Positions 36,777 through 60,258 of a DNA stretch of 64,000 nucleotides are shown piece by piece. The DNA is from an uncultured Gammaproteobacteria bacterium. Lineage in GTDB: Bacteria > Patescibacteriota > Patescibacteriia > Patescibacteriales > UBA12075. The stretch's first letter is position 1. Each line of letters starts with the position of its first letter. The position numbers were made by a program, and so were the translations under genes. The notes beneath the pieces are model-generated. The model did no database searches. It worked only from the letters and a program-made list of their open reading frames with translations, and was not told the origin of the DNA. Where the stretch lies: the NCBI GenBank assembly GCA_964459725.1, contig CAYWNT010000002.1, positions 83,719-147,718 of the forward strand. The letters run 5' to 3'.

Positions 36777-37664
36777 ATGTCAAACAAAATAAAACCAGAT
36801 TTTATCGGTATTGGACCAGGGAGATCATCCTCGACCTGGATTTTTGATTGTATAAATGAGCATCCTGATTCATGTCTTTCAATCCCAAAAGAGACAAAGT
36901 TCTTCTGGGATGATGGTGAAGACATGACTAATTATGAAGCCTTCTACAAGCACTGTGGTCAGAATAAAATAATTGGCGAGTTTACTCCAGGCTACATATA
37001 TAGTAGAAAGGCTGCTGAAAGAATAAAAAAATATTATGGAAAAACCAAAATAATCACTTACTAGAGAAATCCTCTAACCAAGCTTTCCTCTGTTTATTAT
37101 TTCAATAAGCACCGAGGTATTATTAATTTCGACGACATCAACCAAAGAATTAATTTTGATCTAAAAAATAATGATCCAGATGGTTATCTTCAAAAAGGAT
37201 TTTATTATAAATATTTAAAAAACTATTACGATCTTTTTGATAAAAATCAGATACTGGTTTTAAAATACGAAGACATAGAAAGAGACCCAAAAGAATTTAT
37301 TAAAAAAATCTATCAATTCTTAAATCTAGACGATAATTTCGTGCCTGACCTACTTAATAAAAAAGTAAATATCACAGCCAAAAATACAAGACGATTCCCG
37401 GTTCTTAATAAAATTTATTTTTCGACCAAAAAGTATTTAAACGAAAATAAAAAATATAATATACTTAAAATTTTAAAAGTTATAAAGGTCCACAAGCTCG
37501 TCAGCTTTATACTGAAACATAATTTACGACAAAAAGGTATTGTGCCACTAAAAAAACAGGATATCAATCCTGAATTTAAAGAAAAACTAATAAAATACTA
37601 CAAAGAAGATACTTTACAACTAGAAAACTTAACTTCTGTAGATTTTAAAGAATGGCTCAGTTAA
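36777..37664 (+). pseudogene. sulfotransferase interrupted by a single in-frame TAG (37062-37064)
   Basis: The 5'-PSB-like loop is IGIGPGRSSSTWI. The TAG falls in ..KIITY*RNPLTKLSSVY.., exactly at the 3'-PB 'RxP..R..S' region. Both halves are in the same frame, and I translated no other stop between 37065 and 37664. Confidence 0.7.
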
Positions 37665-37819
37665 AACAAGGTATAAATAAGTGGCGCTACCACACTGCCC
37701 TCAGCAAAAATTAATAGCATACCCAAAAGTAGTAAAATAATAACTATTGGGATTAACCAGTATTTTTTTCTTTGTTTTAAAAAACTTAAAAATTGTAAAA
37801 AAATAGTAAATTTTGTCAT
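37661..37819 (-). CDS. DUF5989 (SxtK-like) small membrane protein; not in ORF track (52 aa)
   Basis: The reverse complement gives MTKFTIFLQFLSFLKQRKKYWLIPIVIILLLLGMLLIFAEGSVVAPLIYTLF*. The signature ...RKK(Y/W)WL.PI... and the C-terminal APxIYTLF match the family usually found after carbamoyltransferase/SxtJ. It starts 1 nt after the SxtJ stop. Confidence 0.7.
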   Translation of the reverse strand: MTKFTIFLQFLSFLKQRKKYWLIPIVIILLLLGMLLIFAEGSVVAPLIYTLF

Positions 37820-37820
37820 A

Positions 37821-38243
37821 TTAAAATAGATTTTCTAGATCCTGTTTGGATACAGGTTCTTTTTTTATCCAATAAGTATTTAAATCTTTGTTGATTTTTT
37901 TATTTAAGAAATCTCCTTTTATCACTCTAACACATAATCCGATTGGTAGCAAAAATAAATAATACAATATTATCAACAACAATCTCGAAACAAAATACCC
38001 AATAAACAAAGAAATTCCCATCCACAACAAATACAAATATGAAACCAGCTCAACCCTATAGAGAGAAACAATAAAATAAGCAAGGATTATATAAAAGATC
38101 AGACTAATTTCTTTACCACTCAAAAAAAAGAAGAACCCGATCAAAACTATTATCACCAAAAATAATATCGAAAACTTTCTCAGTTGTTTTTCGCTTCTAT
38201 CTATTTTTTTTAATTGTTTGTAAATATCTTTCAAAAAATTCAT
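37821..38243 (-). CDS. SxtJ-family small membrane protein
   Basis: 140 aa with three or four TM segments and a C-terminal ...RVIKGDFLNKKINKDLNTYWIKKEP (SxtJ-like 'GkDpL...d...sYW' tail). It lies downstream of a carbamoyltransferase. Confidence 0.65.
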   Translation of the reverse strand: MNFLKDIYKQLKKIDRSEKQLRKFSILFLVIIVLIGFFFFLSGKEISLIFYIILAYFIVSLYRVELVSYLYLLWMGISLFIGYFVSRLLLIILYYLFLLPIGLCVRVIKGDFLNKKINKDLNTYWIKKEPVSKQDLENLF

Positions 38244-38249
38244 ATATAT

Positions 38250-39452
38250 TTATTCTTCCCTTTTTAAAAGAAGCTCGTTATTAATCGCTTCGGCAATTCT
38301 TTTGTAGCCCTCGGGCAAAGGATGGCCGTCTAATGATTCAGGATATATCTTTTGTCCCTGACTCAAAGCCAGAGACATGTGCTCTGTCACGTCTATAAAA
38401 GGTAAATTATTTTCCAAGCAAAAACTCTTTGTCTCCTCTATTACATTTTTCTCCTTTTCTATAATATCATTCAAATATTCACCTATCTCTATTCCCTCTT
38501 TATTAAAATACTGACTGTAAACATATTCTTTGGTAGGAATGATAACAATCACAAATTCTGCCTCCTTCTCATTGGTATCATCTCTCATCTCTATCCATAA
38601 TTTTTTGGTAATAGCAAATCCTTCTTTGGTATCAGGATTACTGAGATCGACTGTGTTGTATCTATAAGTCGGGCTCATTATTGTCCCTAAATTATCATGT
38701 TCATAGTAGTAGCCTTTGTCTGGATTGTCTTGGAGCCATTTTTTTATTCTCTGATTTTTTTCTTCATTCGTTTCAGCTAGGCCCATTTTCTCTCTGGCCT
38801 TTCTCGTAACATTTCCAAGTAGTGAATAGAAATAGCTCTTACTTCTAATATAGTCCCTAGTTCTTCTGAGTTTGTATTTAAATGAACCAGAGTCCTGTCC
38901 GCTCTTTATCATCCTTCTCACATCCTCACTTCTTGTTGACTCAGTAGTATTTTCTTTCTTCTCCTCATTTCGTAAGTGCTTCCAGTTTTCATTATTGTAA
39001 ACAATATGATAAGCATCCAATAAATCATTGCCAAGATAAAATCCATGCAAAACATATTCCGGATTAAAGCTAAGAGCCTTATCTAGTAAATAATAATGCT
39101 GCACTATAGCTCTCTCAATGAAAGCCATTTGGTATACAGTCTTATCAGAAATCGAATCTAAAGCCTGTGGCCATGCTTCGTCCATCTCAGCATTTAACCC
39201 TTGGGTCTGAGAATCTCCCATGGCAACAATATCTACCTTTTCTGGAACAGATTTATTTCGAAAACCATTATCATCCCAGGCGCCTTTCTCTCCGGCTACG
39301 TGTCCCAATATTTCATGCTCCACTCTTTCGTATTCTGACTTGTCTACTTTGACAATACGTAAAACCACTTCAGCCAGCAATACTGAAAATAAAACACTCA
39401 CCAAAATTAAGGTTAAATTTATTAATAAATTTTTTTTATTAGTCCAACTCAT
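38250..39452 (-). CDS. SGNH/GDSL-type hydrolase or O-acyl/esterase, membrane-anchored
   Basis: Block I is VAMGDSQTQG and block V-like is LDGHPLPEGY. It has an N-terminal TM anchor. The start is set at the ATG at 39452 (GGAGAG upstream) rather than 39476. Confidence 0.7.
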   Translation of the reverse strand: MSWTNKKNLLINLTLILVSVLFSVLLAEVVLRIVKVDKSEYERVEHEILGHVAGEKGAWDDNGFRNKSVPEKVDIVAMGDSQTQGLNAEMDEAWPQALDSISDKTVYQMAFIERAIVQHYYLLDKALSFNPEYVLHGFYLGNDLLDAYHIVYNNENWKHLRNEEKKENTTESTRSEDVRRMIKSGQDSGSFKYKLRRTRDYIRSKSYFYSLLGNVTRKAREKMGLAETNEEKNQRIKKWLQDNPDKGYYYEHDNLGTIMSPTYRYNTVDLSNPDTKEGFAITKKLWIEMRDDTNEKEAEFVIVIIPTKEYVYSQYFNKEGIEIGEYLNDIIEKEKNVIEETKSFCLENNLPFIDVTEHMSLALSQGQKIYPESLDGHPLPEGYKRIAEAINNELLLKREE

Positions 39453-41262
39453 ATTTCTCTCTCCAATTTTCGTCATTTTCTAATTTTTTTTGATTTTCCT
39501 TATCAATAACAAAATTACCCATCACTAAATAATCCATTTCTGTCCTCATAAAGCACTTATAAGCGTCTTCAGGCGTGCAAACTATTGGCTCACCTCTTAC
39601 ATTGAAAGAGGTATTGACCACCAAGGGACAATCGGTTATCTCATAAAAAGAATTTATCAATTCATAATATCTCTCATTTCTCTCCTTGCTTACGGTTTGA
39701 AGTCTAGCCGAATAGTCAACATGCGTTATAGCAGGAACTACAGATCTCTTTGTTTTTAGCTTATCTAATCCGCTTACTACCTCTTTTTCGGTTGATATTT
39801 CAACTTTTTTATTATCCCTTATGTTTGTGGTGATCAGCATGTAAGGCGAAGGTCTATCTATGTTAAAAAAATCTGATGCCTTATCTTCCAAAACAGAAGG
39901 GGCAAAAGGACGAAAGCTTTCTCTGTATTTAATTTTCAAATTCATTTCCTTTTGCGTCTTTGATGATCTAGGATCCCCCAATATAGATCTGTTACCCAGA
40001 GCTCTCGGCCCAAATTCCATTCTACCCTGAAACCAGCCAATTATTTTTTGCTCAGAAATAAGCTCGGCAGTTTTTTTACATAAATCATTATCATTTTCTA
40101 TGTAATCATAACCAATACCCGACTTATCTAAATATTTTCTAATACTTTCATCTGAAAATTCCGGGCCGAAGTAAGAGCCATTCTGCTCTGACACATTTTT
40201 GTCGTCAACAAATCTTTTTCCGTCAAAATAATGATACCAGGCGTACAAGGCAGCCCCTAGAGCTCCACCAGCATCCCCTGAAGCTGGCTGAATCCAAATA
40301 TCCTTGAAAGGACCCTCTCGTAATATTCTGCCATTAGAAACACAATTCAAGGCAACACCTCCAGCTAGGCATAAGTATTTTTTTCCAGTTTTCTTATGAA
40401 CAAAGTTTACTATTCTGAGCATCAACTCCTCTGTAACAACCTGAATAGACCTGGCTATGTCCATTTCTTTTTGTGTAATCTCGGTTTCTGACTTTCTCGG
40501 ACTCCCTCCAAACAACTCATCAAACTTTTTATTAGTCATCTTGAGTCCAGCAGGATAATTAAAATAATCCATATTCAACCTGAAAGATCCATCTTCTTTT
40601 ATGTCAATCAAATTATCATAAATAACATCAACGTATTTTGGCTCACCGTAAGGAGCGAGTCCCATTAACTTGTACTCCCCCGAGTTAACTCTAAATCCTG
40701 TATAATAAGTAAACGCAGAATACAAAAGTCCCAAAGAATGAGGAAAATGAATCTCTAGGAGTGTATTTATCTTATTATCCTCTCCCACTCCAAATGAAGT
40801 TGTAGCCCACTCACCCACTCCATCAACAGTTAAAAAAGCCGCCTCCTGGAAAGGCGAAGAAAAAAAGGAAGACGCAGCGTGTGACAAGTGATGTTCGGCA
40901 AATAATATCTTACCCTTGTAGTCGGTTTCCCTCTGAACCACTTGAGGAATCCATAATTTCTTCTTTAGCCAAGCCTGCATGGCCTTGATAAATGATCTGA
41001 TTCCTTGTGGAGCATAAGCCAGATAAGTCTCTAGTATTCTTTCAAATTTTAAAAACGGCTTATCGTAAAAAACGATAGCCTCTATGTCATTTATATCCAC
41101 CCCTGCCTTATCTAAACAGTATTTGATAGACTGTGTTGGAAAACTTTGGTCATGCTTCACACGTGTAAATCTCTCCTCTTGGGTTGCGGCAATTATCTCT
41201 CCATCTCTCAAGAGACAAGCTGCACTATCATGATAGAAGCATGACAATCCTAGTATTATCAT
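39439..41262 (-). CDS. carbamoyltransferase (NodU/CmcH family)
   Basis: MIILGLSCFYHDSAACLLRDGEIIAATQEERFTRVKHD is a canonical N-terminus, followed by ...LAGGVALNCVSNG... and ...NTSFNVRGEPIV. The protein is 607 aa. Confidence 0.92.
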   Translation of the reverse strand: MIILGLSCFYHDSAACLLRDGEIIAATQEERFTRVKHDQSFPTQSIKYCLDKAGVDINDIEAIVFYDKPFLKFERILETYLAYAPQGIRSFIKAMQAWLKKKLWIPQVVQRETDYKGKILFAEHHLSHAASSFFSSPFQEAAFLTVDGVGEWATTSFGVGEDNKINTLLEIHFPHSLGLLYSAFTYYTGFRVNSGEYKLMGLAPYGEPKYVDVIYDNLIDIKEDGSFRLNMDYFNYPAGLKMTNKKFDELFGGSPRKSETEITQKEMDIARSIQVVTEELMLRIVNFVHKKTGKKYLCLAGGVALNCVSNGRILREGPFKDIWIQPASGDAGGALGAALYAWYHYFDGKRFVDDKNVSEQNGSYFGPEFSDESIRKYLDKSGIGYDYIENDNDLCKKTAELISEQKIIGWFQGRMEFGPRALGNRSILGDPRSSKTQKEMNLKIKYRESFRPFAPSVLEDKASDFFNIDRPSPYMLITTNIRDNKKVEISTEKEVVSGLDKLKTKRSVVPAITHVDYSARLQTVSKERNERYYELINSFYEITDCPLVVNTSFNVRGEPIVCTPEDAYKCFMRTEMDYLVMGNFVIDKENQKKLENDENWREKYELD

Positions 41263-41272
41263 ATTATATAAA

Positions 41273-42235
41273 TCAACTCCTTAAAATGGCCAGCATTTTC
41301 TCAGCGGCACTTTTCCAAGTAAACTTCAAAATATTATTATAAGCATTTTCTGCTAATTTTTTTCTTAAACCTTCGTCTTTCGCCAATCTCACAATTGCTT
41401 TAGCATATGCTTCCTCATCACGGACAGGCACAATAATAGAATTAACTCCGTCTACTGCAACCTCCTTGTTTTGCTCTATATCTCCGCATATTACCGGCAC
41501 CTTGCAGGCCATGGCCTCTGCAATTGGATTATTCCAACCAGCATAGTACTGGGCATCTACAAAAATATCAGCACTACTATATTCTCTAGCCATCTCAGAC
41601 TGTGGTAATCCTTTTCCTGTATACTCATCCATAAACAATGATGGTACTTCTTTCTTGGCAATTTCTACGGCCCTCCTAATAGTGGAAGTACCCTTCCATA
41701 ATCGATTACCACCAATACATAAAACCTTCATCTTGTTTTCTTCCTTTTCAAACTCAGCCGGGTAAAACATCTTCTGATCAACACCACCAAGTACCACCTC
41801 AGAAGAAATATCCATATTTTCTCTAAGCCAATTCTTACTATCAGTGCAATTTACAATTATCTTAACGTCCTTGTCTAGTAGCGCCTTCTTTAGCTGATAA
41901 GCTCTTTTATCTATAAAAAAAAGAAGAAAACAAGGCAAGAGTAGATTCTTTTTATTGTACAAATTGCAACAATAAAAATATTTCTTTCTCGCTTTTACTT
42001 GTTTGACGTTTTTATAGTCTATCTGATCATAATACACCAATACATCATGCTCCCTGTTTAAAAAATCTTCCAATGAAAAAATGTCAGCCTTCACATCGAG
42101 CCAACGACACTTACTACCATCACTGTGAAAAATACTTACATATATACCCATGGAAATTAAATGACTACTGAGTTCAATGACCCTTCTAATACCTCCTTTT
42201 AATTTTAAATGTGGAACTAAAAAACTAATTTTCAT
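41273..42235 (-). CDS. glycosyltransferase (GT-B, GT4-like)
   Basis: The C-terminal Glycos_transf_1-like region reads ...ADIFVDAQYYAGWNNPIAEAMACKVPVI. The start is set at the ATG at 42235 (MKISFLVPH), 4 nt after the upstream stop. Confidence 0.8.
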   Translation of the reverse strand: MKISFLVPHLKLKGGIRRVIELSSHLISMGIYVSIFHSDGSKCRWLDVKADIFSLEDFLNREHDVLVYYDQIDYKNVKQVKARKKYFYCCNLYNKKNLLLPCFLLFFIDKRAYQLKKALLDKDVKIIVNCTDSKNWLRENMDISSEVVLGGVDQKMFYPAEFEKEENKMKVLCIGGNRLWKGTSTIRRAVEIAKKEVPSLFMDEYTGKGLPQSEMAREYSSADIFVDAQYYAGWNNPIAEAMACKVPVICGDIEQNKEVAVDGVNSIIVPVRDEEAYAKAIVRLAKDEGLRKKLAENAYNNILKFTWKSAAEKMLAILRS

Positions 42236-42239
42236 AAAT

Positions 42240-43268
42240 TTATGCCATGCCATCATGTCTTGGACAAAAAACACACATTGGTGATGGAGTATCTGTATAG
42301 AGCATTCTTCTAAACTCTCGATAATCTTTATTATTCCAAATATTTTTCAAACTATCTTTGTATAAATTACCAAAATTTACATTTCGAGGATCCATTCCTT
42401 GCACACAACAAGGAGTAATATCCCCCTCTACTGAAATAAACGGCCTTTCCGAAGGCATTCTGCATTTGTAACCAGAAACTGGTGATAAGGGCGGATAAGA
42501 AAATATCACACCAATTTTCTCAGCATATTCTCTAGCCTCCTTCAAATATTTTTCAGACATCTCTCTATTTTCAGGATGATAAAGTGCGTTTATATCATAC
42601 TTATCATTTCTTCCTCGATGATCAACAAGCCCTCTTATCTTAACCTTTTTTACACCAGTCTCCTTGGCAAAATCCAATATTTTTTCAATCTCTTTTATTC
42701 TTGGAGGTATAACTACAGAGTATATTTCTACTCTAATATCACTTCCGCTCTCCCTGTGCTGATTCATGAAATTTTTTATATTCTCTTTTACTATTTGAAA
42801 ATTAGAGCCTATTCTAATCTTGTTATACTCTTCTTCGATCCCAGAATCAATAGAAAAAATAAGAGACTTTAAACCGCTATTAAGTATCCTTTCTGTATTC
42901 TGACTATTCAGCAATGTACAATTAGTAGAAAAAGAAGTGGAAATCCCTTTTTCAGAAGCATATTTCACCATCTTTAATAAGTCACCATTAAGTAGCGGCT
43001 CTCCATATCCTGTAAAATTAATAGATTTCAGTTTTTTAAATTGCTTAATAATTTTTATAAAATTATCAAAATCAATATCTTTTTTATCAACTCTCTGCTT
43101 CATCTCATCATCACACATCGTACATCTCAGGTTGCACCTAATGGTTGTTTCAATTTGGACTTCCTCCGGCTTTGAAAAATCATAGCCACCACCTATAAGT
43201 GCCTCTTTATACTTTGTTATTTTTCTGAGTATTGAATTTATTGATAATTTGCTAATGGAATTAATCAT
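42240..43268 (-). CDS. radical SAM enzyme with SPASM-type C-terminal Cys cluster
   Basis: CNLRCTMCD (CX3CX2C), with C-terminal CRMPSERPF..., ITPCCVQG... and CVFCPRHD. Confidence 0.85.
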   Translation of the reverse strand: MINSISKLSINSILRKITKYKEALIGGGYDFSKPEEVQIETTIRCNLRCTMCDDEMKQRVDKKDIDFDNFIKIIKQFKKLKSINFTGYGEPLLNGDLLKMVKYASEKGISTSFSTNCTLLNSQNTERILNSGLKSLIFSIDSGIEEEYNKIRIGSNFQIVKENIKNFMNQHRESGSDIRVEIYSVVIPPRIKEIEKILDFAKETGVKKVKIRGLVDHRGRNDKYDINALYHPENREMSEKYLKEAREYAEKIGVIFSYPPLSPVSGYKCRMPSERPFISVEGDITPCCVQGMDPRNVNFGNLYKDSLKNIWNNKDYREFRRMLYTDTPSPMCVFCPRHDGMA

Positions 43269-43971
43269 GCTTCTTACATTTTACAAAAAATATCCTTGGC
43301 TCCTGCCTTTCAGAATTAAATTCAGAAATTTCAGCCGAATAATAATCTGTATAAATTTTTTGAATATTTATAAGTCTGGATATTGTATTTATAATTTTTC
43401 TAATTATTCTATATGAATAAAATTTTGGAATTAATCTCTGGCCATAAAACTTATCTACCCCCAGATATGGGCTTAGCTCCTCTTTGAGTCCTTCATAATC
43501 ATATTCAAGAACGTGAAATTTATTTACTGGTTTTTTTGTGAAAGGAGAGGTAATTTTCTTATTAGGAGTTGATAGCAACAAAACGCCATCTTTTTTCAAC
43601 CACTTGTTTAGATTTTTTAAATACTTGATTCTGTCTTCTTTCTCTAGATGCTCAATAGTTTCAAAACTACATATGACGTCAAAGCTCTCATCCTCGAATA
43701 ATTCATCAGTTGCTGAGGCGCAAATAAACTCAATGTTGCTTTTTTGAAATCTGTCTTTAGCATACTCAATGCTCTCTCTGGATAAATCTACCCCCGTCAC
43801 CTTTCTCGCCTTTTGACTAAGCAAACTAGAGCCATAACCTGTTCCACTGGCAATATCCAACACAGCCCTTTTTTCTACATATTTTTTGGCAAAATTATAT
43901 CGTGCCATATGCTCATCAATCAATCTCTTTTTTGATAATTCTGGCACGAATTGTTCTCCGGTAAATTTCAT
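43261..43971 (-). CDS. class I SAM-dependent methyltransferase
   Basis: Motif I is VLDIASGTGYG and the post-I region is VTGVDLS. The FETIEHL motif is also present. Confidence 0.85.
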   Translation of the reverse strand: MKFTGEQFVPELSKKRLIDEHMARYNFAKKYVEKRAVLDIASGTGYGSSLLSQKARKVTGVDLSRESIEYAKDRFQKSNIEFICASATDELFEDESFDVICSFETIEHLEKEDRIKYLKNLNKWLKKDGVLLLSTPNKKITSPFTKKPVNKFHVLEYDYEGLKEELSPYLGVDKFYGQRLIPKFYSYRIIRKIINTISRLINIQKIYTDYYSAEISEFNSERQEPRIFFVKCKKHD

Positions 43972-45017
43972 AGTTGTTTTTTTATAGTCTCACTCAAACT
44001 TTCCTTACTGAAAAATTTCTCAATTTTTTTTCTTGCGTTTTTCTTAATATGCTTTAGCTCTTCATATTTTTTTTGAACATCTACTATTTTTCTGGCAAGA
44101 TCTTCTCCGTCAGCCATGTTACAATACACTAAATCCTCATTATTATTAAAGTAATTTTCCATTTCCTTATTTTTTCCTGTTATCACAATTTTACCACAGG
44201 CCATTGATTCCAGCAACTTATTAGGTATCACTCTTTTGGCCTTTTCGGTGCTACCAAATATACCGAGGCACACTTCTGCCGATTTTATCTCCCCTATTAA
44301 TTCCTCATAAGAAATCCTGTCTACAAATAAGACATTTTGGAGATTATGCTCCTTGCTCTTTTCAATTATCTCCTTCTTTGTCTGGCCAGATCCTATTATT
44401 TTAAACTTTATTTTTTCGTTTTTTAGAATCTTAGCAGCTTCAATAATGTATTCCACTCCCTGCAAGGGAATAAAGTATCCATAGAACAAAACAGTAAACT
44501 CCCTATTATCTTCCTGCCTTGATTCCACTCTATCAATAACATCCAAATCAATAGAAACTAGTAAAACTAATTTCTTTTTACTCTTACTTATTTTAAACTT
44601 CAGAGAAAAATAATTTTTATGGCCTTCTGTGTCAAATATAATCACATCAGACAATCTAACCATCAAAAAATCCAACAAATAGTAATAAACTGCCTTAAGT
44701 GAATATTTGGAAGTTAATTTTCTGTCATTAACATAAGTATCGTAAATAGATGTAAAAGCATCGAAAACTATTTTACTTCTATAAAACAATCTAGACAAAA
44801 CCAAGACAAATACAAATTTTTGAGCTGGCTGCATTAAGAAAATATAATCGTATTTTTTTCCATGAAAAAAGAAATATTTTAAAAAAGTCCAATATCTCTT
44901 ATATTTTCCAGAATTGCAATTAACTTTTGACACATCAAAACAATCTTCAAGCGCTGAAATTAACACCTTGTTTCTCTGGTATTCTTCATTGTATGATCCA
45001 ATTATCAAAAGCTTCAT
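43968..45017 (-). CDS. glycosyltransferase (GT-B, GT4-like)
   Basis: ...FKIIGSGQ..., and RVIPNKLLESMACGKIVITG (the E-x7-E-region analogue). Confidence 0.75.
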   Translation of the reverse strand: MKLLIIGSYNEEYQRNKVLISALEDCFDVSKVNCNSGKYKRYWTFLKYFFFHGKKYDYIFLMQPAQKFVFVLVLSRLFYRSKIVFDAFTSIYDTYVNDRKLTSKYSLKAVYYYLLDFLMVRLSDVIIFDTEGHKNYFSLKFKISKSKKKLVLLVSIDLDVIDRVESRQEDNREFTVLFYGYFIPLQGVEYIIEAAKILKNEKIKFKIIGSGQTKKEIIEKSKEHNLQNVLFVDRISYEELIGEIKSAEVCLGIFGSTEKAKRVIPNKLLESMACGKIVITGKNKEMENYFNNNEDLVYCNMADGEDLARKIVDVQKKYEELKHIKKNARKKIEKFFSKESLSETIKKQL

Positions 45018-51673: not shown

Positions 51674-52392
51674 TTTTTTGTAAATTTAACACAATAAGAC
51701 TCTGAAAACAATTGACTCAAACAATTTAACTTTAAATTACCCAAGGTTTTATACAAAATCTTATTAAGAAATGCTGATCTAAATATTGGAAAACTAAGAG
51801 TGGTTGGATAAATTTCAATATTCTCAAAATTATTATCTAATAAAATTTTTCTAAATTTACGAGGAGAGACCTGAGTGCTATGAAAATCAGAAATTTTCCT
51901 TCTCAAAATCTTACTTCTCAGATACTTAGGAGTCTTGGTTATAACAACTCCTGTGCCGTTTTGTTTCAGTATTTTATGAATTTTTTTCGCCACCTCCTCC
52001 TTGTTGGGTATGTACTCTATTGCTCTGGATGAAAAGAAAAAATCATATTCCCTCTTTGGCTCAAAATCTAAAAAATCGCTTTCAATATACTCTATTCTTT
52101 CATTCGTTTTAAACCTCTCTCTAACTAGCTTCAACATCTCAGCCGATATGTCCAATAGATTAAAAATTGAATCTGGATTTCTTTTGACTAGCTCCTTAGT
52201 CCAAGTTCCATGACCTGGACCCAGCTCAAAACAACTTGAAAAATTTTCATTTTGAATAGCTCTTTTTATTGTCGCTAGAGTCATATCATATCCAGCTTTT
52301 TGTATTTCATTTCGAAACCATCTCTTTTCTTCGTATTTCTGATTATTTTTTATTGAAGAATTATAATATTCTCTTACTTCTTTTGTGTCCAT
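51670..52392 (-). CDS. class I SAM-dependent methyltransferase
   Basis: Motif I is FELGPGHGTW. LLDISAEM is also present. Confidence 0.8.
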   Translation of the reverse strand: MDTKEVREYYNSSIKNNQKYEEKRWFRNEIQKAGYDMTLATIKRAIQNENFSSCFELGPGHGTWTKELVKRNPDSIFNLLDISAEMLKLVRERFKTNERIEYIESDFLDFEPKREYDFFFSSRAIEYIPNKEEVAKKIHKILKQNGTGVVITKTPKYLRSKILRRKISDFHSTQVSPRKFRKILLDNNFENIEIYPTTLSFPIFRSAFLNKILYKTLGNLKLNCLSQLFSESYCVKFTKK

Positions 52393-52393
52393 A

Positions 52394-53020
52394 TTATTTA
52401 TTTATTTTTAATATAAAAAAATGATGATAAGGAGAATCTATTGGAACAAAATCACCAACTATTTCTAATCCGACATCTTTTATTTTATTTTTAATCAATT
52501 TTAAGGGATACTCTCTCTTGCCTATTTCCCAATAATGCTCTCCGTTGAATTTGTGTTTTATAGGAAAAATACTGCCCTTGAATTGCCAATTTATTTTTTT
52601 AAAAAAAGGGAGTTTCACGCTAACTGAAAAATGTCTACCCCAATGAGGTAAGCTTATAATTACATTCTTCTTGGCCACCCTACTCAATTCATTTAATACT
52701 TTTTCTAACTTTTCAAAAGGCAAATGCTCCAATACCTCAAAGGCGCAAACCAAATCAAAAGAATTATCTTCTAATTTTATGTTCTCAATACTCCCCACAT
52801 AATCAGGCTTCAATTCTTCATCAATGTCAAAGCTCTTATAATCTATGTTTGTATTTTTTTTAATATAATTTGCAACAACTCCATCCCCAATTCCTATCTC
52901 CAGCACTCTTTGCGGACGTGGTTTAACAATCTCATCGATCTGATTCCAATAACTCGCCCACCGATCTTTAGTGCAATAATTATTAAAATCATAATGCTTG
53001 ATATCAACTTGCTTTTCCAT
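52394..53020 (-). CDS. class I SAM-dependent methyltransferase
   Basis: VLEIGIGDGV..., FDID..., and VCAFEVLEHL. Confidence 0.8.
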   Translation of the reverse strand: MEKQVDIKHYDFNNYCTKDRWASYWNQIDEIVKPRPQRVLEIGIGDGVVANYIKKNTNIDYKSFDIDEELKPDYVGSIENIKLEDNSFDLVCAFEVLEHLPFEKLEKVLNELSRVAKKNVIISLPHWGRHFSVSVKLPFFKKINWQFKGSIFPIKHKFNGEHYWEIGKREYPLKLIKNKIKDVGLEIVGDFVPIDSPYHHFFILKINK

Positions 53021-54065
53021 ATGTATCTCTAATTTTATTTATCAAATTTTTCAAACCATGATTGTCAACCACTATTTTTCTAAGCCCTCTCCCTATAACC
53101 TCTTTTTCTTCTACTGATTTTTTCTTTAAGCTAATTATTTTCTCTGCCAGTTGTTGACTATCTCCTATGTTAAAAAGTAAATCATCTCTATAACTAGACA
53201 ATAACTCCCTAGAAGAATCATTACTTGATAAAACCAATAACTCTGCTGACATTGCTTCAAGTATTGCCTTGTCCAAACTTCCGGTATTACTCATATGCAC
53301 GAACAAATCAGACTTATCCAAATAATCCTTTATCTCCATATTCGGCACAGAGCCAAAAAAGGAAACTATGTCATCTACACCTCTTTCTTTGGATATTTTT
53401 TTGAGTTTCAGAAAATAACTCTCTTGCTCCTCTGTGCCAGGGCCACCTATAATCGAAACTTTTATATTGTTAATTTTATATTCATTCCTGATAATATCGA
53501 TCGCCTCCAACAAAACCTCATACTTTTTAACCGGCGAAATTCTGCCAATCGTTACTATCTCAAAGCTTTCATTTTCCTCCTCGCTTTGTTTCTTGAATTT
53601 ATCAGTATCAATTCCATGTCCTATTATTTTAATTTTTCTACTTCTCAATCGAAAACTATCAGTCGATGCTGTAAAAATTATATTAGTCATCTTTTCGGCT
53701 AGCCATAGTTTCAAATGGACCGCCTTATGAGCATACCATAACGCCACTTCTTTACCAAGTAAACGCCAAAATAATCCGCCCAATATTACATACTCAGGAT
53801 TCATATGAACAAAAACCTTATCATAGCTATTTCTCTCTCTCCAGATGTGTTTATAAAAATTAAATATTCTGACAATAAAAGACGCCCCCTCTTCTTTTCC
53901 CAAACTTAAAACTCTTACATTTTCAGGCAGGTCAAAATCTCTTTTTTCTAGACATATGACTGTCACTTTTTCATTCTGGTTCGCAAATTCCCGGATCCAA
54001 TCATGAAAAAATCCCAATAAATCACCATTTTTATTTACTTGTTGTGTTAGTATAAGCAATCTCAT
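53004..54065 (-). CDS. glycosyltransferase (GT4)
   Basis: It starts MRLLILTQQ. The sequence also includes ...TIGRISPVKKYE... and MSNTGSLDKAILEAMSAELLVLSS. The start is uncertain (54083 in the track). Confidence 0.75.
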   Translation of the reverse strand: MRLLILTQQVNKNGDLLGFFHDWIREFANQNEKVTVICLEKRDFDLPENVRVLSLGKEEGASFIVRIFNFYKHIWRERNSYDKVFVHMNPEYVILGGLFWRLLGKEVALWYAHKAVHLKLWLAEKMTNIIFTASTDSFRLRSRKIKIIGHGIDTDKFKKQSEEENESFEIVTIGRISPVKKYEVLLEAIDIIRNEYKINNIKVSIIGGPGTEEQESYFLKLKKISKERGVDDIVSFFGSVPNMEIKDYLDKSDLFVHMSNTGSLDKAILEAMSAELLVLSSNDSSRELLSSYRDDLLFNIGDSQQLAEKIISLKKKSVEEKEVIGRGLRKIVVDNHGLKNLINKIRDTYGKAS

Positions 54066-54999
54066 TTTTATATAATTCATCATTTAATAATTTAGAAAAG
54101 TCGATAGCGCCAGTCTCGTTTAGGTGGTCAGCGTTAAAAAAATAGTGAGGCCGATCAAAATACATCTTCTGAAAATCTAAGATTCTTACATCTTTGTCTT
54201 TGAGTCTTTCCTCAAATTGACCATAAAAACTCTCTTCACTTCCCATCTCTTTGTCAAATTTAAAATAATAATCCTCTGTAATTGGATATTTCAATAAGAC
54301 AACCTTAATATTTTCTTCCTTGGCCAGATCGATAATACGCAAAAAATACTCAAACAAAAAATCATTTATGTAATTAGAATCCTTGAACTGCTCATCAAAT
54401 CTTTTCTTAACAATTACTTCCTTATTCTTGGCCAGAGAATAATCTCCAACCCCTCTCTGCCAACCCTTTTCTAGCTCAGCCAGCTCTGGCCTCTTTATAA
54501 AATATTTTATAAACTCTCCCCCATTATCAATTACTGGATATCTTGCTGCAGCTATTTTCCTCACAGTGTTTTTTACCCCCTTAAATTCCGGCCACTCATC
54601 AAATCCTTCAAAATCCTTCCAATACCATTCATTTAAAAATCTTTCGGCCCTATAAGAAGAAAATGAATGAAAATCGAGTGGAATAACCAGGGAATCTAAA
54701 TCCATCAATTCTTTATCTGTTATATTCTTGAACTTTAGAAAGGACTGAAAATAATTTTCTCCAGATGATGAATAATTAAATGAGTCCTGAATATACTTTG
54801 GATTTATAGCGTATTTAGGATGAGAATCCCCTAAAAACAATATCCTGGTATCCTCCCCGTGCTCTTGCATTTGCTCTTCTGTTCTCTGTAGCACTGTATT
54901 GGAAAGCATAATCTCTATATAGGCATAATTTATTCCTTCCAGGATTAATATAAAGAGTAGAATAAAAAAGGTAAATTTTATAAAAAATATTTTATGCAT
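54031..54999 (-). CDS. membrane-anchored SGNH-like protein, probable partner of the adjacent MBOAT (DltD/AlgJ/PatB-like role)
   Basis: It has an N-terminal TM anchor, ILFLGDSHP (block I-like), and C-terminal FNADHLNETG (D-x-x-H). It lies directly downstream of the MBOAT gene. Confidence 0.6.
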   Translation of the reverse strand: MHKIFFIKFTFFILLFILILEGINYAYIEIMLSNTVLQRTEEQMQEHGEDTRILFLGDSHPKYAINPKYIQDSFNYSSSGENYFQSFLKFKNITDKELMDLDSLVIPLDFHSFSSYRAERFLNEWYWKDFEGFDEWPEFKGVKNTVRKIAAARYPVIDNGGEFIKYFIKRPELAELEKGWQRGVGDYSLAKNKEVIVKKRFDEQFKDSNYINDFLFEYFLRIIDLAKEENIKVVLLKYPITEDYYFKFDKEMGSEESFYGQFEERLKDKDVRILDFQKMYFDRPHYFFNADHLNETGAIDFSKLLNDELYKNEIAYTNTTSK

Positions 55000-55002
55000 A
55001 AT

Positions 55003-56448: not shown

Positions 56449-56459
56449 AAATTAACCAC

Positions 56460-57572
56460 TCAAGAACTTAAAAAAGATATTATAGAATTTGTGATCCTTT
56501 TTTTTATAAACACAAAAGGCAAGATGCTATTAACTGTGCATCTACCACAATCTAACTCTCTAAAATCACCTTTTTCATGACAATCCAAATAATTAATTCG
56601 CTTGGAATTATTATAGACACTCAAGATTTCTTCATTGGTAATATTTCCGATAATTGCTTCCTTTACTGGATTATTGCAACAAATATAAACGTCGCCATTC
56701 CAATTTACATTTAAGCCATTCAAATACGTACAAGGTTTCTTCAGCTCGAATTTAGCTAGCAGTCTATTTACCCAGGACATCTTTTTTCTAAGGCCATCTC
56801 TGGCTCCTGCCCAATTATGAGGCTCATAGGAAAATGATGCGGCTTTGTTTAATCCCTCTAATTGTTTTTTCCAGTACTTTATATACTTAATCCTGTTTGC
56901 AAAACTAACATTCCCAACGTCAACAAAGTGGATATTAAAAAGTGTGTCTTTTTTTAACTCTTTGGCTCTTTTTAAAAGATAAAGAATATTGCTTTTAGCC
57001 TCGTCGAACTTATCTACCTGCTTTCCCTCTTTATATTCCTGACGATTAAAGCCATCCATAGACATTTCAACAGACAAGATCGGATACTCGAGCAATTGAT
57101 CTACTCTTTTCTTATTCAAAACTATAGCATTAGTTGAAACCTTTACTTTTATATTTGACTTAACGGCTAGGTCTATCATGTCAATCAATCTAGGGTGTAA
57201 GAAAGCCTCGCCAAAAAGACCGAAAGAAATAGTATCTACCTTGTTTTCTCTCGCCCATTTTACGATTCTTTCATAAAGCTCAAATTCCATATAGCCAGAT
57301 CCAGAGTCATGAATATGTTCCCTAGGACAATAGGAGCATCTAGCGGTACATCTATTGGTAGGACCAATTCTAATAACCCTTGGAGAATTTGCTTTTCTAC
57401 AATTATATCTCCCGGCTTTATCAAGAACAGCATTCACTCTTTTGACATGCTTAATTATAAATTTCTCCAACACATTATACTTCTTCTTTTTTGTACCAAC
57501 TGAGATATTTTCATTTTTTTTATCTACAGCGTCTACTATTCCGCCATAATTATCATACTTTGCTTCTTTCAT
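56460..57572 (-). CDS. radical SAM enzyme with SPASM-type C-terminal Cys cluster
   Basis: CTARCSYCPRE (CX3CX2C), with C-terminal CTYLNG..., DVYICCNNP... and CHEKGDFRELDCGRC. Confidence 0.85.
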   Translation of the reverse strand: MKEAKYDNYGGIVDAVDKKNENISVGTKKKKYNVLEKFIIKHVKRVNAVLDKAGRYNCRKANSPRVIRIGPTNRCTARCSYCPREHIHDSGSGYMEFELYERIVKWARENKVDTISFGLFGEAFLHPRLIDMIDLAVKSNIKVKVSTNAIVLNKKRVDQLLEYPILSVEMSMDGFNRQEYKEGKQVDKFDEAKSNILYLLKRAKELKKDTLFNIHFVDVGNVSFANRIKYIKYWKKQLEGLNKAASFSYEPHNWAGARDGLRKKMSWVNRLLAKFELKKPCTYLNGLNVNWNGDVYICCNNPVKEAIIGNITNEEILSVYNNSKRINYLDCHEKGDFRELDCGRCTVNSILPFVFIKKRITNSIISFLSS

Positions 57573-57586
57573 GAAATTTTAGAAAA

Positions 57587-58711
57587 CTAATTGCCCAAAG
57601 CGATCTCCCACGATTTTTTGTATAAACGAAGAGTTTCTTCTTTGTTTGGAAGGTTTATTACCTCCCTTTTTGCATTAATAGTTAAATTATTTCTTAATTG
57701 ATTATCATTTATCATTTTTCTCATTGCCTCCTCTAGAGCCTTTTGATCACCAATCGGCACAACCAATCCACTTTTATTATCTTTGATTACTTCTTCGGCG
57801 CAGCCAACAGTGGTCATAATAATAGGTAAATCTGAGTGAGCTGCTTCGATAATCACTCTTCCCCAACCCTCGTAATTTGATGGCAGCACGTAAGCGTCCG
57901 CCAGGGTATACTCTTTATAAATATCATCTACCCAGTCTTTTATATAAGCATTTCTCTCCAAATTATAATCTGCAATACATCTAACCAACTTGGCTCTCTC
58001 CGGCCCCTTTCCTATAATTCTCAAAACAGAATCTGGATTTGTCTTAACCACACCGCTAAAAGCCTTGATCAATAAAGTTAGATTTTTCTGCTTTACGAAT
58101 CTCCCCAACCACAAGAAGACAAAGGATTTATCATTCACACCCTTATCACTTCTTGTGATCACTTTTTCACTATCAGTAAAAACTGGGACTTCTACAATTC
58201 TCTCTTCCTGAATACCGATTGAAATGAGGGTTCTTCTAATTTTATCACTCACCACCCTAACACTATCCGCTTTTTTTATCAGATATTTACCAAGCCAATA
58301 TCTAGAGTAGTTTATTATATTTTCATTCCTCCAATACTTTTCACTAAAAAAATCTCCATGCTCCTGGATGTTCAATTTCAAATCAAACTTCTTAGCCAAT
58401 ATCCAACCCACCAAGGAAAGCTCGAAAGGATCCTGAACAGTTATCAGATCATACCTGTTTTTACCAATCAATTTCTTGGAAAAAAAATAAATCTTTACCA
58501 AGGAAATAATCCTTGATAAAGGCAGAAAATACTTAAACCCTGATACACTATAAGCTTTTACCTTTTCACTCAATACTTGTCCATGTCTCTTCTTAGAAAA
58601 AACCACAACATCGTATTTTTTTACCAAACCACCATACTCGATTATTCTTTTTGCTGTTTTTGAGCCTGGTTCTAAAACTTGATCATCAGACCCCAAACTT
58701 AAAATTTTCAT
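57587..58711 (-). CDS. glycosyltransferase (GT4)
   Basis: ...FLWLGRFVKQKN... and PSNYEGWGRVIIEAAHSDLPIIMT. Confidence 0.8.
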   Translation of the reverse strand: MKILSLGSDDQVLEPGSKTAKRIIEYGGLVKKYDVVVFSKKRHGQVLSEKVKAYSVSGFKYFLPLSRIISLVKIYFFSKKLIGKNRYDLITVQDPFELSLVGWILAKKFDLKLNIQEHGDFFSEKYWRNENIINYSRYWLGKYLIKKADSVRVVSDKIRRTLISIGIQEERIVEVPVFTDSEKVITRSDKGVNDKSFVFLWLGRFVKQKNLTLLIKAFSGVVKTNPDSVLRIIGKGPERAKLVRCIADYNLERNAYIKDWVDDIYKEYTLADAYVLPSNYEGWGRVIIEAAHSDLPIIMTTVGCAEEVIKDNKSGLVVPIGDQKALEEAMRKMINDNQLRNNLTINAKREVINLPNKEETLRLYKKSWEIALGN

Positions 58712-60258
58712 TTTATTTTCTTTAGTAGATCATTGCTCTCTCTGGAAACATCTTGCCAGCCCCTACTACTATCTATTGATTTAATTTTGTTTAAATACTT
58801 TTTATAGCCTTCCTCTTCAAACAGTGGTTTTATTTTTTGATACATATCCTCGCTACTTAGAGGGTCAAAAAATATCAGTCTATCTTTGTATTTTTCATAA
58901 AAACCACATTCCCTAGTCAGAACAACAGGGGTTCCTAGTTTTATCGCCTCTAGAACAATGTTTGGACTTACTTCTGAAATAGATGGCACTACAACCAGAT
59001 AGCTCTCTCTTATTTTTTTCAAGAGTTCATCATGCTCTATTCCCGGCTCAAAGCTAACTCTCTGCTTTATATTCATTTTCTCTGACATGCACTCCAGTCT
59101 TTCCTTGTCAGGCCCATCACCAATAATTTGCAACTTAAATTCAGGATCCTTTTTAAAACCAACCAACAACCTCTCTATATTTTTTAGTCGAATCAGGCGA
59201 CCAGCAAATACTATTTTCTTTTCTTTTTTTTCTTCTTCGCTCTTAATCTCTCCTGTGTCAGGAAAAGGATTTTCAATTACAATTGTTCTTTCTTTTTTTA
59301 ATTTAAATTGCTCGATATAAATATCTCTTTGCCATTTGGTAGAGAATATTATCCTCTTATTTCTCCTTAAAACAAATTTATGAATTCTAATGAGTATTTT
59401 TTCCGTGAAGTTTTTCTTTCCTTGATAGTAGCTAGAAAGAGGTCGATCGGTCCACTGATTATTAATAGCCTTCTCCCAGACAAAGTCTCCTCCAATCCTG
59501 GTTATAATCTTGGTTCTGGGGAGTGCTATCTTGGTAAGCACACATGGGATTCCAACGCTAACAAGATCAAAGGCATAAACAACGTCAGCCCACCACACTA
59601 TCTTTCTCAACCTATTGAAAAAAGCCAGATATCTAAAAAATATATTTTGCCCCCTGTTTACATAAAGCACATCATCGCTACTCTCACCTTCGCCGTATGT
59701 AATTATCTTTACCTCAAAATCATTTTTGACAAGTTCTTCTTTTAATTTTTTTACATATTTAGCAGGTCCTCCAATATCAGACCCATAAATTCCAGTCGCC
59801 AAGATCACCCTGGTTTTATTTGACTCGGCCAAAATCTTCTTTTTTTCTTCTTTTCTTTTTTTAAAAATTATAAATTTATAAACAATATAATTTCCAATAG
59901 ACAAGATAGATCCGATAATGGCTTGAGCCATTATATACCAAACACCCATTTCCTCAACTAGGTACTGTACTGAAAAAGCGTTGATACTTAAATTTAATAA
60001 ACCGACTGAAAAATAAATAACAACTTGCCTTTTTGTCCTTTTTCTAGATTCATCTCGAAATGTCCAAAACTTTTGTAAATAAAAACTAATAAAAAAAGCT
60101 GCCAGGAAACCCAAAGAAGCAGCTATGATTATATCAATACTTAATACCCCGTGCAGCAAAAAAAGAAGACTAAAATCAGCAACAGCGGCAGTAATACCTG
60201 ACAAAGCGAATTTTACAATCATTCTATTTTTATATACCTGGCTAATAAATCGTTCCAT
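58708..60258 (-). CDS. fusion: N-terminal GtrA-like 4-TM domain + GT4 glycosyltransferase
   Basis: MERFISQVYKNRMIVKFALSGITAAVADFSLLFLL... is GtrA-like and is followed by a GT-B domain (...FAGRLIRLKN..., PSISEVSPNIVLEAIKLGTPVV). The track start at 60318 would read through a tRNA-derived repeat, so the ATG at 60258 is preferred. Confidence 0.75.
   Translation of the reverse strand: MERFISQVYKNRMIVKFALSGITAAVADFSLLFLLHGVLSIDIIIAASLGFLAAFFISFYLQKFWTFRDESRKRTKRQVVIYFSVGLLNLSINAFSVQYLVEEMGVWYIMAQAIIGSILSIGNYIVYKFIIFKKRKEEKKKILAESNKTRVILATGIYGSDIGGPAKYVKKLKEELVKNDFEVKIITYGEGESSDDVLYVNRGQNIFFRYLAFFNRLRKIVWWADVVYAFDLVSVGIPCVLTKIALPRTKIITRIGGDFVWEKAINNQWTDRPLSSYYQGKKNFTEKILIRIHKFVLRRNKRIIFSTKWQRDIYIEQFKLKKERTIVIENPFPDTGEIKSEEEKKEKKIVFAGRLIRLKNIERLLVGFKKDPEFKLQIIGDGPDKERLECMSEKMNIKQRVSFEPGIEHDELLKKIRESYLVVVPSISEVSPNIVLEAIKLGTPVVLTRECGFYEKYKDRLIFFDPLSSEDMYQKIKPLFEEEGYKKYLNKIKSIDSSRGWQDVSRESNDLLKKIK

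Follow-up and report, generated by a model that had tools for sequence, protein, structure and literature searches.

A tightly packed 22-gene block, probably for surface-glycan assembly and decoration, in a small-genome Parcubacteria bacterium

Gene clusters of the Wzx/Wzy type, known from O-antigen, capsule and extracellular polysaccharide (EPS) loci, combine a Bac_transf phosphoglycosyl transferase, a run of GT4-family glycosyltransferases (GTs), a Wzx flippase, a Wzy_C-domain protein and tailoring enzymes. Bacteria of the Candidate Phyla Radiation (CPR), or Patescibacteria, are organisms of small genome size believed to live in attachment to a host cell, a way of life that makes surface chemistry central to their biology, though almost nothing is known of it. 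Two gene sets described elsewhere are relevant here. In Gram-positive bacteria, CotH, a polyphosphate polymerase (VTC) and DUF4956 form an accessory set of Pel loci (PMC7112168); deletion of the CotH and DUF4956 homologues of Streptococcus intermedius lowers Pel levels and aggregation, and a 2025 study reported the three-gene synteny at Pel loci only (both PMC12345266). In the saxitoxin clusters of cyanobacteria, sxtI-J-K-L encode a carbamoyltransferase, two proteins of 134 and 54 amino acids (aa) and a GDSL lipase (PMC2679770, PMC2684587), sxtK being a gene of 165 bp (PMC2679770). Here we analyze a 64,000-nucleotide (nt) stretch of a Parcubacteria/Patescibacteria metagenome-assembled genome (contig CAYWNT010000002.1 of GCA_964459725.1, positions 83,719 to 147,718), called the window below, in which 22 consecutive open reading frames (ORFs) on the minus strand, between positions 37661 and 60258, probably make up one block of tightly packed genes for assembling and decorating a surface sugar chain in a small-genome CPR bacterium. 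Relatives of both accessory sets lie within it.

A first-pass annotation of the window had proposed 22 co-directional genes running from 60258 to 37661 with every junction short or overlapping, and the ORF list and junction measurements bear this out. When starts are taken from the longest ORFs, each of the 21 junctions is either an overlap or a gap no longer than 14 nt. Gaps occur at 10 of them (1, 6, 10, 12, 8, 2, 1, 3, 11 and 14 nt) and overlaps at the other 11 (4 nt four times, 8 nt twice, and 11, 17, 35, 38 and 53 nt). The overlap sizes of 4, 8, 11, 17 and 35 nt given earlier recur in this list, while the 14-nt overlap also given requires the SGNH gene to start at its second ATG. Of the 20 same-strand junctions that the window has outside the block, only 5 measure 14 nt or less and 9 exceed 80 nt; the packing of the block is therefore far tighter than the local norm and a real property of it. 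Such spacing fits cotranscription and translational coupling of the genes. The longest ORF of gene 1 reaches 60318, and a JGI call of 516 aa agrees with a start at 60258. The same locus is present in four other assemblies (JGI, ENA, Logan) at 99.8 to 100% identity, and it is therefore not a chimera or assembly artifact. In one of these, an ENA scaffold (L002), a run of 100 N at 6075-6174 falls within the gene for methyltransferase MT_c, which explains an absent gene call there and is not a true deletion. The GC content is about 35% across the window.

Domains were called by Pfam profile scans, and an NCBIfam equivalog scan covered 20 of the proteins. The genes, in block order and with scores in bits, are as follows; backbone, insert and cassette refer to the comparison with related loci given below, and SAM denotes S-adenosylmethionine.

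58708-60258, minus strand: gene 1, GtrA-like domain of four transmembrane segments fused to a GT4 glycosyltransferase, 516 aa (GtrA_DPMS_TM 68.5, Glycos_transf_1 88.4); backbone
57587-58711, minus strand: gene 2, GT4 glycosyltransferase GT_f (Glycos_transf_1 133); backbone
56460-57572, minus strand: gene 3, radical SAM/SPASM enzyme rSAM_b (Radical_SAM 60.7, SPASM 30.5); backbone in L018
55003-56448, minus strand: gene 4, AlgI/DltB-like MBOAT O-acyltransferase (MBOAT 94.2); insert
54031-54999, minus strand: gene 5, membrane-anchored MBOAT partner, DltD/DUF1574-like with a GDSH motif (sub-threshold profiles); insert
53004-54083, minus strand: gene 6, GT4 glycosyltransferase GT_e (Glycos_transf_1 86.5); backbone
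52394-53020, minus strand: gene 7, class-I SAM methyltransferase MT_c (Methyltransf_11 48.1); backbone
51670-52392, minus strand: gene 8, class-I SAM methyltransferase MT_b (Methyltransf_25 51.7); backbone
51053-51673, minus strand: gene 9, putative P-loop kinase of nucleoside/nucleoside-monophosphate (NMP)-kinase fold (Walker A-only Pfam matches); backbone
49912-51063, minus strand: gene 10, GT4 glycosyltransferase GT_d (Glycos_transf_1 127.8); insert
48746-49915, minus strand: gene 11, GT4 glycosyltransferase GT_c (Glycos_transf_1 70.1); backbone
46441-48753, minus strand: gene 12, membrane-anchored CotH kinase domain with a C-terminal right-handed beta-helix, 770 aa (CotH 86.7, Beta_helix 54); insert
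45719-46438, minus strand: gene 13, VTC-domain, polyphosphate-polymerase-like protein (VTC, PF09359, 117.6 against a cut-off of 23); insert
45030-45710, minus strand: gene 14, DUF4956 membrane protein with an MgtC-like transmembrane region and a soluble C terminus (DUF4956 43.1); insert
43968-45017, minus strand: gene 15, GT4 glycosyltransferase GT_b (Glycos_transf_1 75.4); backbone
43261-43971, minus strand: gene 16, class-I SAM methyltransferase MT_a (Methyltransf_25 79.4); insert
42240-43268, minus strand: gene 17, radical SAM/SPASM enzyme rSAM_a (Radical_SAM 64.1, SPASM 54.1); insert
41273-42274, minus strand: gene 18, GT4 glycosyltransferase GT_a (Glycos_transf_1 63.9); weakly conserved backbone position
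39439-41262, minus strand: gene 19, NodU/CmcH-type carbamoyltransferase (Carbam_trans_N 364, Carbam_trans_C 248); cassette
38250-39476, minus strand: gene 20, membrane-anchored SGNH/GDSL protein in an SxtL-like position, 408 aa (direct profile match 18.7); cassette
37821-38243, minus strand: gene 21, small SxtJ-like protein of three to four transmembrane segments (SxtJ 18.9 against a cut-off of 24.4); cassette
37661-37819, minus strand: gene 22, DUF5989 protein of 52 aa with a single transmembrane segment, SxtK sized (DUF5989 74.5); cassette

This content supports the earlier designation of the block as one for envelope-glycan biosynthesis and decoration, with some changes in detail. Glycos_transf_1 is found in seven block proteins (63.9 to 133 bits), so that the eight GT4 enzymes first counted, in a list that itself added up to 23 genes, become seven. 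The first annotation was to count as refuted if profile searches failed to bear out its GT and methyltransferase assignments; besides the seven GTs, these searches recovered the three methyltransferases, both radical SAM/SPASM enzymes, the MBOAT protein and the carbamoyltransferase, as well as the DUF5989, CotH, VTC and DUF4956 families. Topology prediction assigns the GTs, methyltransferases, radical SAM enzymes, carbamoyltransferase, VTC protein and kinase as soluble; it gives one N-terminal anchor to each of the CotH, SGNH and MBOAT-partner proteins, which presumably face outward; and the MBOAT, DUF4956, SxtJ-like and DUF5989 proteins and the GtrA half of gene 1 are predicted polytopic or single-pass membrane proteins.

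The enzymes expected at either end of a lipid-linked pathway are encoded nearby:

31329-32654, plus strand: phosphoglycosyl transferase (Bac_transf 205.9 bits)
33134-35398, minus strand: Wzy_C protein with tetratricopeptide repeats (TPR) (Wzy_C 57.3 bits plus TPR)
35526-36773, plus strand: Wzx flippase (Polysacc_synt 63.8 bits)

The families of these three proteins, and their place outside the block, stand as first annotated; they lie beyond its 3' end rather than upstream, and wzx is convergent with it. Wzx and the phosphoglycosyl transferase are convergent partners also in two related loci, L015 and L019 (44 to 47% identity, with 47% for the phosphoglycosyl transferase). Taken together, the block is likely a surface-glycan assembly and decoration cluster that feeds a Wzx/Wzy-type lipid-linked pathway, and the presence of a single phosphoglycosyl transferase, Wzx and Wzy_C protein favors one pathway. 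By family membership, the phosphoglycosyl transferase would prime polyprenyl phosphate, and the seven GT-B/GT4 enzymes, the first of them tethered by its fused GtrA-like module, would lengthen the chain at the cytoplasmic face. Soluble tailoring enzymes (three SAM methyltransferases, the NMP-kinase-fold kinase, two radical SAM/SPASM enzymes and the NodU-type carbamoyltransferase) would add methyl and carbamoyl groups, perhaps phosphate, and some radical chemistry. Wzx would then flip the unit, which the Wzy_C-TPR protein would polymerize or ligate, and outward enzymes would finish it: the MBOAT protein and its partner by O-acylation, the SGNH protein alongside a pair of small membrane proteins, and the CotH-beta-helix protein backed by VTC and DUF4956.

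Relatives of the operon were found by anchoring searches on the SGNH protein and on the kinase. Three of them are uncharacterized CPR-like operons, L015 (GCA_054046425.1), L017 (GCA_965230995.1) and L018 (GCA_964435875.1), which share 7 to 13 genes with the block in collinear order at 26 to 67% identity. From this comparison, 14 of the 22 genes form a collinear backbone held in common with other low-GC, CPR-like loci: the GtrA-GT4 gene, GT_f, rSAM_b, GT_e, MT_c, MT_b, the kinase, GT_c, GT_b, GT_a and the carbamoyltransferase-SGNH-SxtJ-DUF5989 cassette. The other eight are inserts, namely the MBOAT gene and its partner (between rSAM_b and GT_e), GT_d, MT_a with rSAM_a, and CotH-VTC-DUF4956. L015 has the order GT_f, GT_e, MT_b, kinase, MT_c, GT_c, GT_b, carbamoyltransferase, SGNH, SxtJ and DUF5989, its shared genes being 26 to 66% identical and its cassette followed by the convergent Wzx and phosphoglycosyl transferase genes. 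The order in L017 is as in L015, and this operon sits on a 742-kb chromosome record, in keeping with the reduced-genome host presumed earlier. L018 reads GtrA, GT4, GT_f, rSAM_b, GT_e, MT_b and kinase (28 to 50% identity). Unlike the block, all three are without the CotH trio and the MBOAT pair in the stretches examined, L015 and L017 are also without radical SAM enzymes, and in L018, a relative of higher GC (0.535), the GtrA-like and GT4 halves of gene 1 are two adjacent separate genes (3990-5744, plus strand), which identifies gene 1 as a fusion. A comparison of variable and conserved parts across relatives had been suggested at the outset; judged by gene order and identity, what emerges is a mosaic, a conserved backbone into which four modules were inserted independently.

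The individual backbone genes are conserved to differing degrees. GT_f is 44% identical to its counterpart in L018 and 32% to that in L015, and rSAM_b is 49% identical to its L018 counterpart. GT_e matches L007, L015, L017 and L018 at 36 to 42%, MT_c matches L015 at 47% and L013 at 42%, and MT_b is 44% identical in L015, L017 and L018. Full-length homologues of GT_c occur in L007, L009, L011, L013, L015 and L017 (29 to 47%), and GT_b is 38 to 40% identical in L015 and L017, where it lies directly after or near GT_c. GT_a is 20% identical over its full length to the gene in the same position of L017. Of the inserts, GT_d finds only partial matches of at most 28% identity in relatives, and MT_a partial matches only. 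The best NCBIfam match of rSAM_a reaches 137 bits against a cut-off of 380; the CxxxCxxC motif is kept in both radical SAM proteins. Elsewhere, in L009 to L013 and L018, radical SAM enzymes (B12-binding or SPASM) together with several SAM methyltransferases occur in nearly every related glycan locus, a recurrence that suggests heavy methylation or radical modification of sugars to be common in the group.

Gene 9, first described only as a P-loop protein, is by its structural model a kinase with the nucleoside/NMP-kinase fold. The model (pLDDT 92) finds deoxyadenosine, adenylate and thymidylate kinases as best folds (TM-scores of about 0.5 to 0.57), and homologues bear Thymidylate_kin, AAA_33 and dNK domains. 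Residues G7, P9, G12, K13, D97, G99, R147 and R152 are invariant, so that the Walker A lysine and the lid arginines are retained.

One of the inserts is the CotH-VTC-DUF4956 trio. Single-sequence searches of the PDB with CotH and VTC gave nothing useful, and profiles of three sequences were used instead. The CotH profile matches Bacillus cereus CotH (5JD9) at 3.8e-11, and D315 and D336 of gene 12, invariant in three Parcubacteria sequences, align with 5JD9 positions that would correspond to the catalytic and metal-binding aspartates D228 and D251 of B. subtilis CotH (PMC7821199), the transfer of numbering between B. subtilis and B. cereus being inferred from spacing. The gene 12 CotH domain is therefore probably that of an active kinase. 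Its protein has one N-terminal transmembrane segment and ends in a CASH-type beta-helix, a fold typical of carbohydrate-binding or carbohydrate-active proteins. Gene 13 matches yeast Vtc3 weakly by profile and shows alternating invariant charged residues; together with its Pfam score, these features identify a predicted VTC/TTM catalytic domain of polyphosphate polymerase. Gene 14, whose DUF4956 family is the constant membrane-protein neighbor of VTC, has four to five transmembrane segments and is 43 to 70% identical in seven relatives.

Scans of genome and metagenome collections with CotH gave only two loci each; L006 is a Planctomycetia CotH at 26% identity. The CotH-anchored search yielded seven diverged Parcubacteria loci at 29 to 53% identity (L005, L007 and L009 to L013), and CotH, VTC and DUF4956 are the sole genes common to all seven, always in the same order. 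In six independent Parcubacteria lineages, this window included, the trio lies within glycan loci that differ greatly in what they encode: GT2 and GT4 enzymes, DegT aminotransferases, epimerases, radical SAM enzymes of the B12 or SPASM type, NeuB, cytidylyltransferases and ABC transporters. In one lineage it is found among housekeeping genes. None of the trio-bearing Parcubacteria loci is a Pel locus. The block itself was also considered as one and rejected: scores with PelF are 38.7 and 36.9 bits, short of its cut-off of 100, and the block holds no PelA, PelD, PelE or PelG domains. Since no pel genes are present here, the trio synteny extends to non-Pel loci and to another phylum-level group. 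Within the block, GT_c and GT_b, which adjoin in L015 and L009, directly flank the trio, and it joins them through an 8-nt overlap and a 12-nt gap.

Does the trio act on the glycan at all? It might instead serve polyphosphate or phosphate homeostasis, or phosphorylate surface proteins, and merely have landed in the operon. In L005 and L008 it lies between genes for SpoU, Ogt, DnaG and RpoD, with no glycan gene near and no GT within 10 kb, and B. subtilis CotH phosphorylates proteins (PMC7821199). The setting in L005 and L008 means that the functional tie of the trio to glycan is associative, not obligatory. Its repeated embedding in differing glycan loci, the beta-helix on the CotH protein and the Pel phenotypes of the S. 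intermedius deletions (PMC12345266) all speak against independence, which we regard as unlikely. A role in decorating the glycan, as in the pathway described above, is what we favor. How the trio might do so is a matter for conjecture: by analogy with the eukaryotic VTC complex, VTC and DUF4956 may be its split bacterial counterpart, making polyphosphate from ATP and threading polyphosphate or phosphoryl groups across the membrane, and the outward CotH may hold the glycan by its beta-helix and phosphorylate it with the exported donor, which would solve the absence of ATP outside a monoderm cell. Such a self-contained extracellular phosphorylation system is a speculative proposal that we hold to be improbable as it stands. 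The trio may also be portable, serving Pel loci in Gram-positive bacteria and unrelated glycan operons in Parcubacteria.

The MBOAT pair is absent from every relative examined. Gene 4 carries a WHISLS motif with the conserved MBOAT histidine and scores 169 bits against the DltB model, whose cut-off is 375. Of the MBOAT protein and SGNH-like partner first proposed, the former is confirmed and the latter stays at 19 to 22 bits, below threshold; gene 5 has one N-terminal transmembrane segment and a GDSH motif, and no PDB sequence match was found for it. A Dlt (D-alanylation) system was rejected on the DltB score and because the block holds no DltA or DltC domains.

The carbamoyltransferase cassette closes the block. 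Gene 19 is 66 to 67% identical to its counterparts in L015, L017 and L019 and 56% to that in L016; NodU itself was rejected as its identity, the NodU equivalog scoring 148.8 bits against a cut-off of 1000. Gene 20 had been called an SGNH protein, and the weak direct match was followed by confirmation from a homologue profile and a structure model, on which grounds we take it to be one. Its homologues bear Lipase_GDSL_2 and ALGX domains, S89, G123, N150 and H385 are invariant or nearly so among 38 homologues, the profile matches GDSL structures in the PDB at 7.8e-8 and AlgJ at 2e-4, and the model (pLDDT 93) finds SGNH hydrolases and carbohydrate esterases as best folds. The top fold match is the crocagin hydrolase CgnD, whose cluster also includes a carbamoyltransferase; a functional link was rejected, as what is shared is the SGNH fold (TM-scores of 0.46 to 0.61, 10% identity). 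Although the SxtJ assignment first given to gene 21 falls short of its cut-off, the position of this gene beside the carbamoyltransferase is kept in L015, L016, L017 and L019, and its positional equivalents in L015, L017 and L019 carry SxtJ matches. Gene 22 is 65 to 71% identical in L015, L016, L017 and L019. In L016, from a genome of 6.3 Mb, the cassette likewise neighbors genes for Wzx, Wzy_C and GTs, and this recurrence, even there, indicates that it is a general module of polysaccharide loci. In L014, from Thermodesulfobacteriota, an SGNH homologue occurs without an adjoining carbamoyltransferase, so the cassette is frequent, not universal.

Radical SAM/SPASM enzymes are typical maturases of ribosomally synthesized and posttranslationally modified peptides (RiPPs), and with the cassette they raise the question of whether the locus is a secondary-metabolite cluster, RiPP or saxitoxin-like, or else an antiphage defense island. 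The gene content of the cassette matches that of sxtI-J-K-L (PMC2679770), the radical SAM cores match pVip models in PADLOC, the P-loop protein weakly matches VakA, and the locus adjoins a tRNA gene and bears an att-like repeat. Yet with all gaps at 14 nt or less there is no room for a precursor-peptide gene. The viperin model reaches 67.6 bits against a cut-off of 180, both enzymes have the SPASM domains that viperins lack, the PADLOC matches are confined to the generic radical SAM core, and seven other proteins scanned, including three of the seven GTs, have no PADLOC match. The seven GTs, taken with the phosphoglycosyl transferase, Wzx and Wzy_C, mark the pathway as one for glycan. We therefore rejected a metabolite or defense cluster as highly improbable and retain the reading of the block as a surface-glycan cluster.

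The extent of the block as a transcription unit depends on its borders, at which the following features lie:

60406-60493, minus strand: tRNA-Ser(GGA), the 5' boundary of the block (ARAGORN and Rfam, 57.9 bits)
60292-60309 and 60401-60418, minus strand: 18-nt exact copies of the tRNA-Ser(GGA) 3' end, in the spacer before gene 1 and at the tRNA
61256-62209, minus strand: NAD-dependent sugar epimerase/dehydratase upstream of the tRNA (Epimerase 207.8 bits)
37557-37572, minus strand: candidate intrinsic terminator, a 6-bp stem followed by U7 (pattern match only)

A 148-nt spacer separates the tRNA from gene 1, and the co-directional run extends past the tRNA to the end of the window through genes for a DsbA-like protein, the epimerase, GatA and a protein of the 23S rRNA-intervening-sequence (23S-IVS) family. 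With tRNA and spacer upstream, the count of 22 genes is not bounded by a demonstrated promoter. The epimerase likely supplies a nucleotide sugar, and the whole glycan-related region runs from the phosphoglycosyl transferase to the epimerase (31329-62209), flanked by holB and gatA. The 18-mer occurs twice against 0.02 copies expected, the second lying 109 nt from the tRNA on its downstream side; the repeat resembles an att-type scar of an old integration at the tRNA, and its presence in the spacer speaks against the 60318 start of gene 1. Neither the window nor the fetched loci yielded a third copy, and with copies only 109 nt apart a genomic island comprising the whole block and delimited by the repeat was rejected. 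L005, the closest relative, likewise has a tRNA-Ser(GGA), at 3714-3804 (plus strand) and some 6 kb upstream of its CotH trio, the intervening genes being unrelated to those of the window; the linkage may be ancestral or coincidental.

Several transcripts, arising from internal promoters or from overlapping suboperons that match the backbone and the inserted modules, would accord with the block mosaic of separately acquired modules. Many sigma-70-like matches lie in the minus-strand genes, though not above chance, no recognizable promoter was found in the 148-nt spacer, and a weak hairpin follows the tRNA, without a clear U-run and not more stable than shuffles (z = -1.7). Against this stand the 21 short junctions, 11 of them overlapping, which leave no intergenic space for terminators, and the joining of the trio insert to its neighbors by an 8-nt overlap and a 12-nt gap. 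The absence of internal terminators claimed at first holds between genes; seven minus-strand terminator-like hairpins do exist, all within genes and at chance level (totals of 7 against 5.6 +/- 2.5 in shuffles, and of 4 against 7.0 +/- 2.6). As promoter-like matches too are at chance level, these scans are uninformative either way. On balance we consider several transcripts somewhat less probable than not and prefer cotranscription of the block. The candidate terminator, about 90 nt past the last stop codon, is a plausible end of the transcription unit.

Next to this end, a sulfotransferase gene (36777-37664, plus strand) scores 65.7 bits with Sulfotransfer_1 when read through, and has an in-frame TAG at 37062-37064; its stop codon overlaps that of the convergent DUF5989 gene by 4 nt. 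The same TAG split is found in four independent assemblies. Recoding was rejected because TAG terminates 7 of 33 other genes in the window, and, TAG being an ordinary stop there, the gene is most likely a nonsense pseudogene. The possible sulfo-decoration once suggested rests on this adjoining, most likely dead gene. Outside the glycan region, a BNR/Sortilin-Vps10 repeat protein is encoded at 29064-30134 (minus strand), between ribosome recycling factor and holB, and the 23S-IVS ORF (63679-63957, minus strand, 93.5 bits) adjoins gatA.

A number of points weigh against reading the block as a single pathway for one surface polymer. None of the 20 proteins scanned reached an NCBIfam equivalog cut-off. 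The MBOAT partner stays below threshold (DUF1574 21.6, DltD 19.1 and TIGR04092 19 bits), as does the SxtJ assignment of gene 21. Start codons are ambiguous, and callers on other assemblies pick slightly different starts for five genes; none of these choices opens a long gap. The mosaic history and the trio standing away from glycan genes in L005 weaken the notion of "one heavily decorated polymer". Finally, the Wzy_C domain is common to polymerases, ligases and O-oligosaccharyltransferases, and no chain-length regulator (Wzz/PCP) domain is present among the ORFs scanned (23454-63957). Both facts would also suit an oligosaccharide moved onto surface proteins, such as S-layer protein or pilin, by the Wzy_C-TPR protein acting as a PglL-type O-oligosaccharyltransferase. 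So would the C-terminal TPR domain, suited to protein interaction, and, to our knowledge, the monoderm CPR cell offers no lipid A core as a ligation acceptor. Neither an acceptor protein nor a glycosylation sequon was identified for such a system, the Wzy_C-TPR gene is a separate unit that is not conserved beside the L015 or L019 operons, and evidence at the domain level does not discriminate between the Wzy_C roles. We find protein O-glycosylation doubtful, and a Wzx/Wzy-type surface glycan remains the reading we prefer.

The roughly 31 kb (31329-62209) given to one glycan locus would be about 3 to 4% of the genome if its size is near the 0.74- to 0.84-Mb contigs of relatives. The recurring CPR-like operons, with a stable backbone and swappable decoration modules, offer a map of genes to compare or express. 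The trio has moved beyond Pel, and its non-Pel glycan loci and stand-alone setting widen where its function can be studied. In addition, sxtJ, sxtK and sxtL, unexplained saxitoxin genes, are now connected to a widespread polysaccharide-locus cassette.

Comparison with the known systems places each part of the locus. With MBOAT-SGNH acyltransferases (AlgI-AlgJ/AlgX, DltB-DltD, PatA-PatB), it shares an MBOAT protein with the WHISL histidine motif followed by a single-pass outward GDS(H) protein; it differs in that the partner is sub-threshold to DltD/DUF1574, that the pair is a lineage-specific insert, and that DltA and DltC are lacking. With Gram-positive Pel loci it has in common the three families side by side, directly adjoining the genes of an exopolysaccharide operon, a secreted or anchored CotH, and a DUF4956 membrane protein whose transmembrane region is MgtC-like; it differs in having no pel genes and no DUF4832, and in a CotH that carries a beta-helix, not FN3. 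Like sxtI-J-K-L, the cassette groups four neighboring genes, for a carbamoyltransferase (about 610 aa), a membrane protein (about 135 to 140 aa), a peptide (about 52 to 54 aa) and a GDSL protein (about 400 to 426 aa), DUF5989 being likened to SxtK by size, and in L017 the cassette has the I-J-K-L order. In contrast to the saxitoxin genes, it lies in glycan operons beside Wzx and GTs, so that a sugar, rather than an alkaloid, is presumably its acceptor, and its SGNH member is membrane anchored.

The locus as a whole is of a well-known kind, a Wzx/Wzy-type glycan cluster, and its main value is comparative. It has the Bac_transf, GT4, Wzx, Wzy_C and tailoring components of such clusters, a GC content slightly below that of housekeeping genes, and modular, fast-changing content. 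It departs from them in its CPR host with a small genome, in showing no chain-length regulator or export parts, in having the genes for the phosphoglycosyl transferase, Wzx and the Wzy_C protein outside the 22-gene block, some of them convergent with it, and in an unusual density of tailoring functions, 15 of its 22 genes encoding proteins other than GTs.

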